DNA from: Escherichia coli
GTDB taxonomy: Bacteria; Pseudomonadota; Gammaproteobacteria; Enterobacterales; Enterobacteriaceae
Assembly (NCBI RefSeq): GCF_001677475.2
Contig: NZ_CP015229.1
Length of the DNA: 64,000 nucleotides
Direction: 5' to 3' (one strand)
Positions within the stretch are counted from its first letter, which is position 1. Each line of letters opens with the position of its first letter. A program made the translations under genes and the position numbers. This document shows positions 15,873 to 21,470 of this stretch, in pieces. The notes beneath the pieces are model-generated. The model was not told where the DNA came from, ran no database searches, and saw only the letters and a list, made by a program, of their open reading frames with translations.

Positions 15873-18236
<2,364 letters not shown>

Positions 18237-18362
18237 GGCCTGCTCCTCACCTGATTAATTTTTTCTTTCTGTTTTGCTTTCGCTAAGCAACTTTTAGCTC
18301 ACTCATTATTTACCATTTGATAACAAATGTTTGGTCTTTCGTGCCATGTAAAAAAACCGCCC

Positions 18363-18366
18363 CGAA
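18363..18366. repeat. Target-site duplication CGAA (left copy)
   Basis: Identical CGAA directly abuts both IS ends (second copy 19808..19811). Confidence 0.7.
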
Positions 18367-18384
18367 TGAACTGCACCCCAAAAG

Positions 18385-18939
18385 TTGGACACTCAACGAA
18401 GTAAGGTGCAGTTTTTTATGAGTAAATATTCTCTCAGCTTTAAGCTTGAGGTTGTGCAGCACTATCTTTCCGGCATGGAAGGGCAGAAAGCGACTGCAAA
18501 GCGTTTTGGTATCGATCACAGTGCCGTTCGTAAGTGGACTGCTGCCTGGAAGCTTCATGGCGAAGCCGGACTTACCACCCGGCATTTCGCCTATTCTCCC
18601 GTCTTTAAAGAGTCCGTTATCCTGCATATGCGTGAGCACCGGTTGTCTGTTCGCGAAGTCTGTGCAAAATTCACTATTCCGGCTTTCTCCACGGTCCTTC
18701 TGTGGGAACGCCTGTATGATGAAGGGGGATTAGAAGCCCTCACTGACAGCCGACGCGGGAGAAAAACGATGCCAGAACGCCCTGAAAATAACCCGGCACC
18801 TTCTTTACAGGCTCCTCTTAACCATGATGAACGAGAGGAACTTGAACAACTGCGTGTTGAAGTGGCTTATCTAAAAAAGTTGCAGGCCTTGCTCAGGGAA
18901 AAAAGCACGTCAAAACGCGGGATAAAACGCAGATCGTGA
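18385..18939 (+). CDS. IS3-family transposase OrfA (HTH DNA-binding, leucine-zipper C-terminus)
   Basis: ORF track 184 aa; resembles IS150-group OrfA architecture; contains in-frame A_AAA_AAG slippery heptamer. Confidence 0.85.
   Translation: MDTQRSKVQFFMSKYSLSFKLEVVQHYLSGMEGQKATAKRFGIDHSAVRKWTAAWKLHGEAGLTTRHFAYSPVFKESVILHMREHRLSVREVCAKFTIPAFSTVLLWERLYDEGGLEALTDSRRGRKTMPERPENNPAPSLQAPLNHDEREELEQLRVEVAYLKKLQALLREKSTSKRGIKRRS
18873..18879 (+). promoter_or_regulatory. Programmed -1 ribosomal frameshift slippery heptamer A_AAA_AAG
   Basis: In orfA frame codons CTA AAA AAG; -1 frame is open from here into orfB (checked codon by codon to 18936). Confidence 0.7.
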
Positions 18940-19775
18940 ATGAGTTAAGGCCGGACTTCCCTCTTGCGCGCTTGTTAAAAGCGGCAGGGCTGGCGAGAAG
19001 TACGTTCTACTGGCAACTGGCGAGCGGTAAAAAACCAGACAAATATGCCGATGATAAGCGGCAGATTTTAACGCTGTTCCATAAACATAAAGGACGGTAT
19101 GGATACAGGCGAATCACGCTGGCTATCCGCCGGGAAGGAAGCTTACTGAACCATAAAAAGGTTCAGAGGTTAATGAAGGCGTTAGATTTAACCTGCTGTA
19201 TCAGAAGGAAGAAATACAACTCTTACAGAGGCCGGTATGGGAAAGTGGCGGGTAATGTGCTGAACCGGCAGTTCAGTGCGGATAAGCCCAACCAGAAGTG
19301 GGTAACAGATGTCACGGAATTTAAAATCAGCGGAGAAAAACTGTATCTGTCCCCCGTTCTGGATCTGTATAACGGAGAAATAGTTGCGTATCAGATGGCG
19401 TCCCGTCCTCTTCTGTCGATGGTGGATGACATGCTGTTGAAGGCTGTATCTGTACTGGGTAAAGACGAATACCCGCTGCTCCACTCAGATCAGGGCTGGC
19501 AATATCAGATGGCGCATTATCAGAACCGGCTTAAGGAGGCTGGTCTGAAACAGAGCATGTCAAGGAAGGGGAACTGTCATGACAATGCGGTGATGGAAAG
19601 CTTCTTCGGCACGCTGAAATCTGAGTGTTTTTACCTGATGGAACACAAGAATATCAGCGAGTTGCGCATGGCTATCGATAATTACATCCACTATTACAAC
19701 CATGAAAGAATAAAACAGAAACTGAAAGGCCTGAGTCCGGTAGAGTACCGAACCCAGGCCCTGATAGCCGCTTAA
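18936..19775 (+). CDS. IS3-family transposase OrfB (DDE catalytic domain), probably expressed as OrfAB fusion
   Basis: ORF track 279 aa; motifs HSDQGWQYQ and NCHDNAVMESFFGTLKSE typical of IS3-family integrase core. Confidence 0.85.
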   Translation: MNELRPDFPLARLLKAAGLARSTFYWQLASGKKPDKYADDKRQILTLFHKHKGRYGYRRITLAIRREGSLLNHKKVQRLMKALDLTCCIRRKKYNSYRGRYGKVAGNVLNRQFSADKPNQKWVTDVTEFKISGEKLYLSPVLDLYNGEIVAYQMASRPLLSMVDDMLLKAVSVLGKDEYPLLHSDQGWQYQMAHYQNRLKEAGLKQSMSRKGNCHDNAVMESFFGTLKSECFYLMEHKNISELRMAIDNYIHYYNHERIKQKLKGLSPVEYRTQALIAA

Positions 19776-19807
19776 TATAAACCGTCCAACATTATGGGGT
19801 CAGTTCA

Positions 19808-19811
19808 CGAA
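19808..19811. repeat. Target-site duplication CGAA (right copy)
   Basis: See left copy. Confidence 0.7.
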
Positions 19812-19823
19812 GGGCGGCTCTGT

Positions 19824-21470
19824 TTATTTCACACAGCGGGTGCATTGTGTGAGTTGTATCTGCTGGAAGAAGTCATTTCCTTTATCATCCACAAGGATAA
19901 ACGCCGGGAAATCTTCCACTTCAATTTTCCAGATGGCTTCCATTCCCAGTTCCGGATATTCAACACATTCCAGGCTCTTAATACTTCCCTGCGCCAATAC
20001 AGCTGCCGGACCACCGATACTGCCGAGGTAGAAGCCGCCGTGTTTTTTACAAGCATCCGTCACCTGCTGGCTGCGGTTGCCTTTCGCCAGCATGATCATA
20101 CTTCCGCCCTGCGCTTGCAGTTGATCGACATAAGAATCCATCCGTCCGGCGGTCGTTGGGCCAAGAGAACCGGAGGCATAACCTTCCGGCGTTTTGGCCG
20201 GACCCGCGTAGTAAATCGGATGATCTTTAATGTACTGCGGCAGCCCTTCACCGTTATCCATCCGCTCTTTCAGTTTGGCGTGAGCAATATCACGACCAAC
20301 GATAATCGTGCCATTCAGCGATAAGCGTGTAGAAACGGGATACTGCGACAACTGTGCGAGGATCTCTTTCATCGGACGGTTAAGGTCAACGCGCACCGCT
20401 TCGCCTTCTCCCGCTTTGCGCAGCTCTTCCGGGATATATTTGCCTGGATTATGTTCCAGTTTTTCGATCCAGACACCCTGACGGTTGATCTTCGCTTTGA
20501 TATTACGGTCAGCAGAACAGGAGACACCCATACCGACCGGGCAGGATGCGCCGTGACGTGGCAGGCGAATCACGCGGATGTCGTGAGCGAAGTATTTACC
20601 ACCAAACTGCGCACCCAGACCAAGATTTTGCGCTTCGATCAGCAATTCTTTTTCCAGTTCCACATCGCGGAACGCCTGACCGTGCTCATTCCCTTCCGTT
20701 GGTAGTTCATCATAGTATTTCGCGGAAGCCAGTTTCACCGTTTTAAGGTTCGTTTCTGCAGAAGTTCCACCAATAACGAACGCAATATGATACGGAGGAC
20801 AGGCCGCCGTACCCAGAGTGCGCATCTTCTCAACCAGGTAATTTTTCAGTTTCCCCGGCGTTAGTAACGCTTTGGTTTCCTGATAGAGATACGTCTTGTT
20901 TGCCGAACCACCACCTTTGGCGATACAGAGGAATTTGTACTCGTCGCCATCAACGGCATAAAGATCGATCTGCGCTGGCAGATTGGTGCCGGTATTCACC
21001 TCTTTATACATATCCAGTGGCGCGTTTTGCGAGTAGCGCAGATTATCTTCGATATAAGTGTTATAGACACCGCGCGCCAGCGCCGCTTCATCACCACCAC
21101 CGGTCCATACACGCTGCCCTTTTTTACCAACAATAATCGCGGTGCCGGTATCCTGACAGGTCGGCAGAATGCCTTTCGCCGCGATGTCGGAGTTACGCAG
21201 GAATTGCAGCGCCACATATTTATCATTTTCGCTGGCTTCTGGGTCACGCAGAATGTCGGCCACCTGTTGTTGGTGAGCCGGACGCAGCATAAACGACGCA
21301 TCATGAAACGCCTGACGCGCCAACAAAGTTAACGCTTCGGGTGCGACTTTCAAAATCTCCTGCCCTTCAAATTCAGATACGCTAACGTGTTCGCTGGTTA
21401 GCAGGTAATACTCAGTATCATCTTTTTTGAGTGGAAAAGGAGCCTGATAATGAAAGGGTTTGTTTGACAT
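19824..21470 (-). CDS. fumA: Fumarate hydratase class I (Fe-S, aerobic)
   Basis: ORF track 548 aa. Confidence 0.95.

Follow-up and report, generated by a model that had tools for sequence, protein, structure and literature searches.

Insertion sequences (IS) such as IS1, IS2, IS5 and IS10, as well as the junction promoters of IS3-family elements, can activate neighbouring genes. Other mobile elements are known for the sites at which they insert: bacterial class C group II introns do so just past the stem-loops of rho-independent terminators. IS150 is the type member of a subgroup of the IS3 family, and we know of no hairpin-loop or terminator specificity of this element. IS1397 and ISKpn1 are reported to insert specifically into REP sequences (PMC1525189). 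We have analysed a 64-kb stretch of Escherichia coli DNA (hereafter the window) in which the element ISEcB1 lies between the fumarase genes fumA and fumC. As an IS insertion near a gene this locus is ordinary, and its added value is in the evidence for a targeting of terminator loops by ISEcB1 and its relatives, which is a variant of the known targeting of REP loops by IS1397 and ISKpn1. We consider it likely, with a probability of about 0.75, that an intact ISEcB1 transposed into the loop of the fumA terminator at a site chosen by the element itself, that the promoter of fumC was kept, and that read-through from fumA was mostly lost. The position is set by the preference of the element for terminator loops and not by anything specific to fumC, which is the main point that the initial annotation of this DNA had overlooked.

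ISEcB1 and the divided fumA terminator

The order of the genes in the window, rstB-tus-fumC-fumA-manA, is the usual one in E. coli and agrees with that of K-12. The tus (plus strand) and fumC (minus strand) genes are convergent and, as in K-12, their 3' ends overlap by 4 nt (window 16833-16836), so that there is no space for a terminator between them. ISEcB1 is inserted upstream of fumC, and it leaves the coding sequences of fumA and fumC both whole. The features of the locus around the element are:

16833..18236, minus strand: fumC coding sequence (class II fumarase, 467 aa), intact; from the ORF list, the annotated fumC of matching E. coli loci and the identical protein on 23 public contigs
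18237..18366, minus strand: retained upstream region of fumC, 130 bp (5' UTR, core promoter, marbox and 3' half of the fumA terminator); from its end-to-end alignment to the K-12 fumC-fumA spacer, with 3 substitutions
18350..18362, no strand: left half of the split fumA terminator, i.e., the A7 tract (the U-run of the minus strand) and the arm CCGCCC; from the sequence, its reconstruction and the fold
18363..18366, no strand: left copy of the target-site duplication, CGAA (the UUCG loop on the minus strand); from the sequence and the comparison with the K-12 spacer
19808..19811, no strand: right copy of the target-site duplication, CGAA; from the sequence
19812..19817, no strand: right half of the split fumA terminator, the arm GGGCGG (5' arm GCCGCCC on the fumA strand); from the sequence, its reconstruction and the fold
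19824..21470, minus strand: fumA coding sequence (class I fumarase, 548 aa), intact, with its stop codon 16 nt from the right end of the IS; from the ORF list and the annotation of matching loci

The element itself has the following parts:

18367..19807, plus strand: ISEcB1, IS3 family, 1441 bp, apparently intact, with ends TGAACTG...CAGTTCA; from its 99.9% identity to annotated copies and the match of OrfB to an IS3 model
18367..18392, plus strand: left inverted repeat (IRL), TGAACTGCACCCCAAAAGTTGGACAC; one match in the window
18368..18414, plus strand: hairpin in the left end of the IS (AACTGCACC...GGTGCAGTT), followed by T6 and the ATG of orfA; fold of -18.8 kcal/mol, z = -3.5
18418..18939, plus strand: orfA, a helix-turn-helix protein of 173 aa; from its translation and its matches to IS3 and HTH families, with the start taken from annotated copies
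18873..18879, plus strand: slippery heptamer A AAA AAG, putative site of the -1 programmed frameshift that gives the OrfAB transposase; from the sequence and the 'programmed frameshift' annotated by RefSeq in identical copies
18936..19775, plus strand: orfB frame, the DDE catalytic part of the transposase; from the ORF list and a match to NF033516 (E = 5.9e-103)
19782..19807, plus strand: right inverted repeat (IRR), CCGTCCAACATTATGGGGTCAGTTCA; 19/26 positions complementary to the IRL

Over 1441-1442 nt, the IS is 99.9% identical to annotated copies of ISEcB1 in E. coli B, BL21, C and other strains, where it is described as an 'IS3-like element ISEcB1 family transposase'. It has the hallmarks of the IS3 family, namely imperfect inverted repeats of the form 5'-TG...CA-3' and a 4-bp duplication (CGAA), and its OrfB matches the family model NF033516 with 345 bits for a cut-off of 160. 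The presence of an A6G-type motif suggests that orfA and orfB are joined by a -1 programmed frameshift. The hairpin of the left end may have a role in blocking incoming transcription or in masking the start codon. A scan of the whole 64-kb window with Rfam gave no family above threshold, and hence no known RNA element in the spacer or in the IS. Remnants of the element are found elsewhere: ~450 plasmids of Klebsiella pneumoniae, including virulence plasmids such as pLVPK/pK2044, hold a piece of ~280-310 bp that matches its 3' end (query nt 1133-1442) with ~87% identity.

When the IS and one copy of CGAA are deleted in silico, the result is AAAAAAACCGCCCCGAAGGGCGGCTCTG, identical to the fumA-fumC intergenic sequence of E. 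coli K-12 MG1655. On the fumA strand, the reconstructed site reads GCCGCCC-UUCG-GGGCGG-U7 and folds into a 10-bp stem with a UUCG loop. The restored hairpin is strong (-23.7 kcal/mol, z = -4.9), carries the U7 tail and stands only a few bases past the stop codon of fumA, and we therefore identify it as the intrinsic terminator of this gene: the reconstructed and the K-12 sequences both have a GC-rich hairpin followed by a U-run 3' of the stop. In the window, this local hairpin is divided by 1441 bp, and the duplicated bases CGAA are the tetraloop of the terminator. ISEcB1, whose architecture is close to that of IS1397, would thus have transposed into the four-base loop of a rho-independent terminator. 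We rejected the possibility of an assembly artefact, as the identical junction is found at a contig end in a public draft assembly that encodes this FumC protein.

The initial annotation had already placed an IS between fumA and fumC, at about 130 bp from the start of fumC, and had noted the loss of an intact terminator by fumA. All this agrees with our analysis: the element (18367-19807) physically separates both genes, the distance is exactly 130 bp (18237..18366), and the loss of the terminator is true for the local hairpin. The transposase gene had also been described as inward-facing, which is not meaningful here, since orfA and orfB, being encoded by the plus strand, are antisense to fumA as well as fumC and run from the fumC-proximal IRL towards fumA.

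The fumC promoter and read-through from fumA

The retained 130 bp include two features of relevance for the initiation of fumC transcription:

18329..18347, minus strand: marbox (predicted SoxS/MarA/Rob site), ATGGCACGAAAGACCAAAC; sole exact match to AYNGCACNNWNNRYYAAAY in 64 kb, for 0.07 expected by chance
18305..18333, minus strand: candidate fumC core promoter, with -35 CAAACA (18333-18328), a 17-nt spacer and -10 AATAAT (18310-18305); from a relaxed sigma-70 scan

Even when the criteria were relaxed to 8/12 matches in the -35/-10 pair, the minus strand of 18237-18520 gave no sigma-70-like match other than this candidate. Its weak -35 is overlapped by the marbox, which starts 19 nt from the end of the IS. 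The overlap of the predicted binding site with the -35 fits a class II promoter activated by SoxS/MarA/Rob, and fumC is described as a class II SoxS promoter with an activator site in that position (PMC6021436). The three differences to K-12 in the retained 130 bp are all outside the marbox and the hexamers. Since the marbox and the core promoter are wholly inside the retained region, the stress-responsive promoter of fumC is most likely unaltered by the insertion. With a class II SoxS/MarA/Rob promoter intact 19 bp away from the element, the induction of fumC by stress should persist.

The initial annotation had considered that the IS could provide an outward-reading promoter. Some IS3-family and other elements make hybrid promoters, and the end of the IS is 130 bp from the ATG of fumC, both of which would be in line with an outward-facing or hybrid promoter at the left end that activates or newly drives this gene. 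Yet neither the standard nor the relaxed sigma-70 scan (down to 8/12) of the minus strand detected a -35/-10 pair across the junction or in the adjoining 154 nt of the IS. In the circle-junction promoters of the IS3 family, the outward -35 is located in the IRR, which here faces fumA and not fumC, whereas the left end forms a stable hairpin. We regard an IS-driven fumC as very unlikely, and in the mechanism that we favour there would be no recognisable IS-borne promoter towards this gene. What stands of the initial interpretation is the separation of the genes, the 130-bp distance and the split terminator, and what is not supported is the outward promoter.

Park and Gunsalus reportedly found in 1995 that read-through from fumA accounts for part of the expression of fumC. 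The antisense RNA of the IS has many windows with more C than G, which are typical of Rho loading sites, and no long ORF. Given the 1.44 kb of C-rich and ORF-poor antisense RNA that would have to be crossed, most of the read-through from fumA to fumC should be lost, and the sequence makes this loss plausible. We infer that transcripts from the fumA promoter would enter 1.44 kb of untranslated C-rich IS RNA, where they would be mostly stopped by Rho, and that fumC would thereby be uncoupled from the fumA promoter. The 3' ends of the fumA mRNA would probably be heterogeneous and devoid of a protective hairpin, which might destabilise them. The antisense strand of the IS also has weak hairpins that resemble terminators (19063-19046 and 18919-18906), which we discarded because shuffled sequence contains at least as many.

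The fumA terminator might instead still work. In the equilibrium (MFE) fold of the 1491-nt read-through RNA, the GCCGCCC/GGGCGG stem re-forms by the U7 tract with pair probabilities of ~1.0, because the inverted repeats of the IS (IRR-IRL) pair and extend the stem. If the arms met in this way, fumA would largely retain both its termination and the protection of its 3' end, the insertion would be nearly neutral for both genes, and an insertion in a loop by an element whose ends pair is the geometry common to the whole clade of ISEcB1 (see below). However, this is an equilibrium fold only; co-transcriptional folding, Rho and RNase cleavage would probably come into play while the 3' arm has yet to be transcribed. 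In addition, intrinsic termination is poorly triggered by long-range hairpins. A fumA terminator that still works despite the insertion is for us unlikely, and we favour the loss of most of the read-through. The effect on the fum locus is probably modest, with fumC keeping its oxidative-stress promoter and being likely cut from the transcripts of the fumA promoter. The loss of read-through could matter in conditions where FumC replaces the iron-sulfur fumarases, e.g., under iron limitation or oxidative stress (PMC7064253).

Insertion sites of ISEcB1 and its relatives

Over 12 kb, none of 5426 complete RefSeq genomes of E. coli exceeds 98.6% identity to the window, whose divergent, Escherichia- or Shigella-like lineage is therefore not represented among them. 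The exact FumC protein is present on 23 public contigs. The comparison of occupied and empty sites involved the inspection of two representative loci. In the empty one (grouped with 13 similar places), nothing separates fumA from fumC, and the three substitutions upstream of fumC are those of the window. In the occupied one (grouped with 8 similar places), the junction is identical and the contig stops 63 nt inside the left end of ISEcB1. Since occupied and empty alleles are found under the same FumC protein and the same upstream substitutions, the insertion looks recent, polymorphic within the lineage and tolerated in nature.

Two of the 5426 complete genomes (23CRST009 and 19SZHZ869Rt) have ISEcB1 between fumA and fumC, in the same hairpin and orientation as the window, with a duplication (CCGA) that is 1 bp leftward. 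The common hairpin and orientation could reflect a single ancient insertion behind all the occupied alleles, with the 1-bp difference being caused by later mutation. But the change from CGAA to CCGA requires two compensating single-base indels, one per side of the IS; moreover, the flanking alleles differ, and there are empty sites among the assemblies with the FumC allele of the window. A single origin is extremely improbable, and the requirement for two indels leads us to conclude that the insertions of the window and of these two genomes are independent events in the same loop.

ISEcB1 has 165 places in the 5426 genomes, and other sites that we examined have similar characteristics. The commonest one, found in E. 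coli REL606, BL21, strain C and many isolates, is located between yfbM and nuoN, which are convergent, and is a terminator loop, A8-CCGCCGA-GCATG-TCGGCGG, with the duplication CATG. Downstream of sseA, derivatives of BL21 contain another copy, inserted in the hairpin A6-CCGCC-GAATTT-GGCGG-T6, and the site is empty in K-12. An element 91.5% identical to ISEcB1 is found in the orthologous nuoN terminator of Klebsiella aerogenes, A7-CCGCCGA-AAAC-TCGGCGG-T6, with the duplication AAAA. The pattern shared by these sites is A6-8-CCGCC...GGCGG, and the arm AAAAACCGCC is present in all of the five independent events, at four hairpins, of ISEcB1 and its 91.5% relative. These are the only events on which the CCGCC motif for ISEcB1 rests. 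In the 64-kb window, the junction of the IS is the only place where the 10-mer AAAAACCGCC is found.

Some copies have particular features. The sseA copy (BL21-Gold(DE3), NC_012947.1 1219912-1222752) divides a bidirectional hairpin downstream of sseA (K-12 2653341-2653390), which in K-12 is also the 3' end and terminator of the small RNA TimR, a putative regulator of the toxic peptide TimP. Its duplication is AATG on the left and AATT on the right; the odd G matches the base next to the left end of the yfbM-nuoN copy, as though ISEcB1 had brought along one base from the donor flank. E. coli 510016 has two ISEcB1 places, and its copy between yfbM and nuoN (NZ_CP025851.1 1002054-1005495) has a left flank ending in …CCGCCTGATTTT instead of …CCGCCGAGCATG and no target duplication, which suggests that two IS copies have recombined or that there was a second event. 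Rosetta2(DE3) and one assembly of BL21(DE3) have five ISEcB1 places each. One of those of Rosetta2(DE3) (NZ_CP083274.1 4467478-4470318) lies in a prophage region, adjoins IS421, has no duplication and has a left flank ending in GAATG like that of the sseA copy, which suggests recent activity of ISEcB1 or rearrangement in laboratory B strains. We treated this copy as rearranged and left it out as evidence on targets; it may be a non-hairpin site. The same may be true of an insertion of ISEcB1 described as 'into ydcZ' (PMC12662567).

The left end of ISEcB1 is shared with elements well beyond the enterobacteria. The exact 26-mer of the IRL was found in at least 120 metagenomic stretches and in at least 120 stretches of named genomes, from many phyla. 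Among the matches listed, the carriers include Burkholderia, Paraburkholderia, Ralstonia, Neisseria, Halomonas, Proteus, Rahnella and Moraxellaceae, as well as metagenome-assembled genomes of Bacteroidales, Clostridia and Chloroflexi, and over nt 61-460 of the IS the elements sharing the 26-mer have an identity to ISEcB1 of only 50-69%. This base-for-base constancy of the IRL in spite of the divergence elsewhere, across Proteobacteria, Bacteroidota, Firmicutes and Chloroflexi, is unusually strong for an IS end.

We inferred the target preference of this clade from its surviving natural insertions. An A-run and a GC-rich arm are present 5-22 nt from the end of the IS in 48% of 107 and 58% of 111 unique left flanks (among the matches listed), compared with 3.6% of 15,600 random positions. 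Many of the left flanks that fail this test are DNA uptake sequences of the Neisseria type (GCCGTCTGAA or GGTCGTCTGAA) or A-runs with AT-rich arms, and at the four uptake-sequence sites with both flanks the right flank holds an inverted copy with which the left one forms a hairpin. These relatives, from 16 loci in Neisseriaceae-like contigs, are ~1240-1265 bp long (lengths measured in four loci only) and adjoin one or the other uptake sequence, with the IS between the inverted pair where both flanks were recovered. In a stricter automated test, a site counted only if its insertion point fell within a hairpin loop of no more than 14 nt, closed by a stem of 4 or more pairs; 18 of the 29 unique sites with two flanks passed, against 71 of 600 random positions. 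By eye, ~25 of these 29 sites have the succession A-run/stem/loop/stem/T-run, and ~4 are without a convincing hairpin. The IRL is beside the A-tract in the three asymmetric events of ISEcB1, and this orientation was dropped as a general rule, since in the clade about five of the 29 sites have only an A-run and about four only a T-run.

ISEcB1 and many of its distant relatives thus appear, from the sequences of their sites, to choose the loops of terminator hairpins with base-level precision. Purifying selection against gene disruption adds to the intergenic bias of surviving insertions, and it cannot account for such precision. We propose that the elements sharing this 26-nt left end insert at the centre of dyad symmetry of intrinsic terminators, in which A/T tracts border a GC-rich hairpin, and that they would duplicate the 3-4 bases of the loop, with ISEcB1 probably using arms of the type A6-8-CCGCC...GGCGG. 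If confirmed, this preference would explain why the same intergenic sites are repeatedly hit across strains and genera, and it would predict the landing places of new copies, including in the much-used B and BL21 strains, where one copy splits the terminator shared by sseA and TimR.

An alternative is that the IS inserted between fumA and fumC at random, without targeting, and was kept because it changed the expression of fumC, i.e., as an adaptive regulatory mutation. IS upstream of genes often alter their expression, the insertion is present in several assemblies of one lineage, and FumC is important under iron limitation and oxidative stress (PMC7064253). A number of arguments go against this alternative. 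First, the same loop of 4-5 bp was independently hit twice. Second, every other ISEcB1 site with clean flanks that we examined is a terminator loop with the same arm sequence. Third, the survey of the clade gives the same preference. Fourth, the promoter and the marbox of fumC are untouched. The first three of these arguments indicate that the placement in the fumA loop is not accidental, and we find an adaptive origin of the insertion improbable, preferring the choice of the site by the element. One could even imagine that, in the cross-phylum IS3 clade marked by TGAACTGCACCCCAAAAGTTGGACAC, intrinsic terminators are a dedicated landing site where pairing of the inverted repeats lets the stem re-form at the foot of the IS in read-through RNA, the terminator stays functional, the IS is insulated from transcription coming from outside and the insertion is near-neutral. 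This extension is doubtful, although if true it would amount to a 'terminator-preserving' safe-harbour strategy of which the fumA site would be one recurrent example.

Comparison with known mobile elements

In our literature search, whose coverage is incomplete so that an earlier description may exist, we found no account of the target choice of ISEcB1 or of terminator targeting by its clade. Several known systems have part of the characteristics of this one. The IS that generate promoters share with it the short distance between the end of the element and the gene, but here there is no outward promoter and the native promoter of fumC is intact between the two. Class C group II introns are also mobile elements for which intrinsic terminators are a safe landing site that spares genes; unlike ISEcB1, they lack terminal inverted repeats, and they reach a site downstream of the hairpin by RNA-guided retrohoming instead of entering its loop by DDE transposition. 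IS150 is of the IS3 family as well, has a similar size and a related end sequence, and is ~67% identical to ISEcB1 over the 3' 330 nt, where ISKpn1 is ~77% identical. In records of K-12, the IS150 copy is all that ISEcB1 matches.

IS1397 has many traits in common with ISEcB1, even if their nucleotide identity is only ~66% over 350 nt. Its left end, TGAACTGCACCCCAAATGTTGGACAT, is nearly identical to that of ISEcB1, it has a frameshifted IS3 transposase encoded by two ORFs and a left-end hairpin ahead of the ATG of orfA, and it duplicates 4 bp corresponding to the loop bases of a GC-rich hairpin. E.g., a copy in E. coli PEC1020 has the duplication TTTA in the loop of a REP palindromic unit (PU), GCCTGATAAGACGCG-TTTA-GCGTCGCATCAGGC. 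Insertion in a loop with duplication of its bases is also what we observed at the site of the window and at three further hairpins for ISEcB1 and its 91.5% relative. The difference is in the nature of the hairpin. IS1397 reportedly targets the REP/PU of BIMEs, whereas the targets of ISEcB1 are single-copy intrinsic terminators with an A-tract, a CCGCC arm and a U-run, and bear no resemblance to the PU sequence GCCTGATAAGACGCG...GCGTCGCATCAGGC. This suggests that ISEcB1 works like IS1397, with intrinsic terminators as targets instead of REP units. If confirmed, these elements would be a natural system to study the recognition of structured or palindromic targets by a DDE transposase, and the REP targeting of IS1397 and ISKpn1 would be widened to a far commoner class of genomic hairpins.
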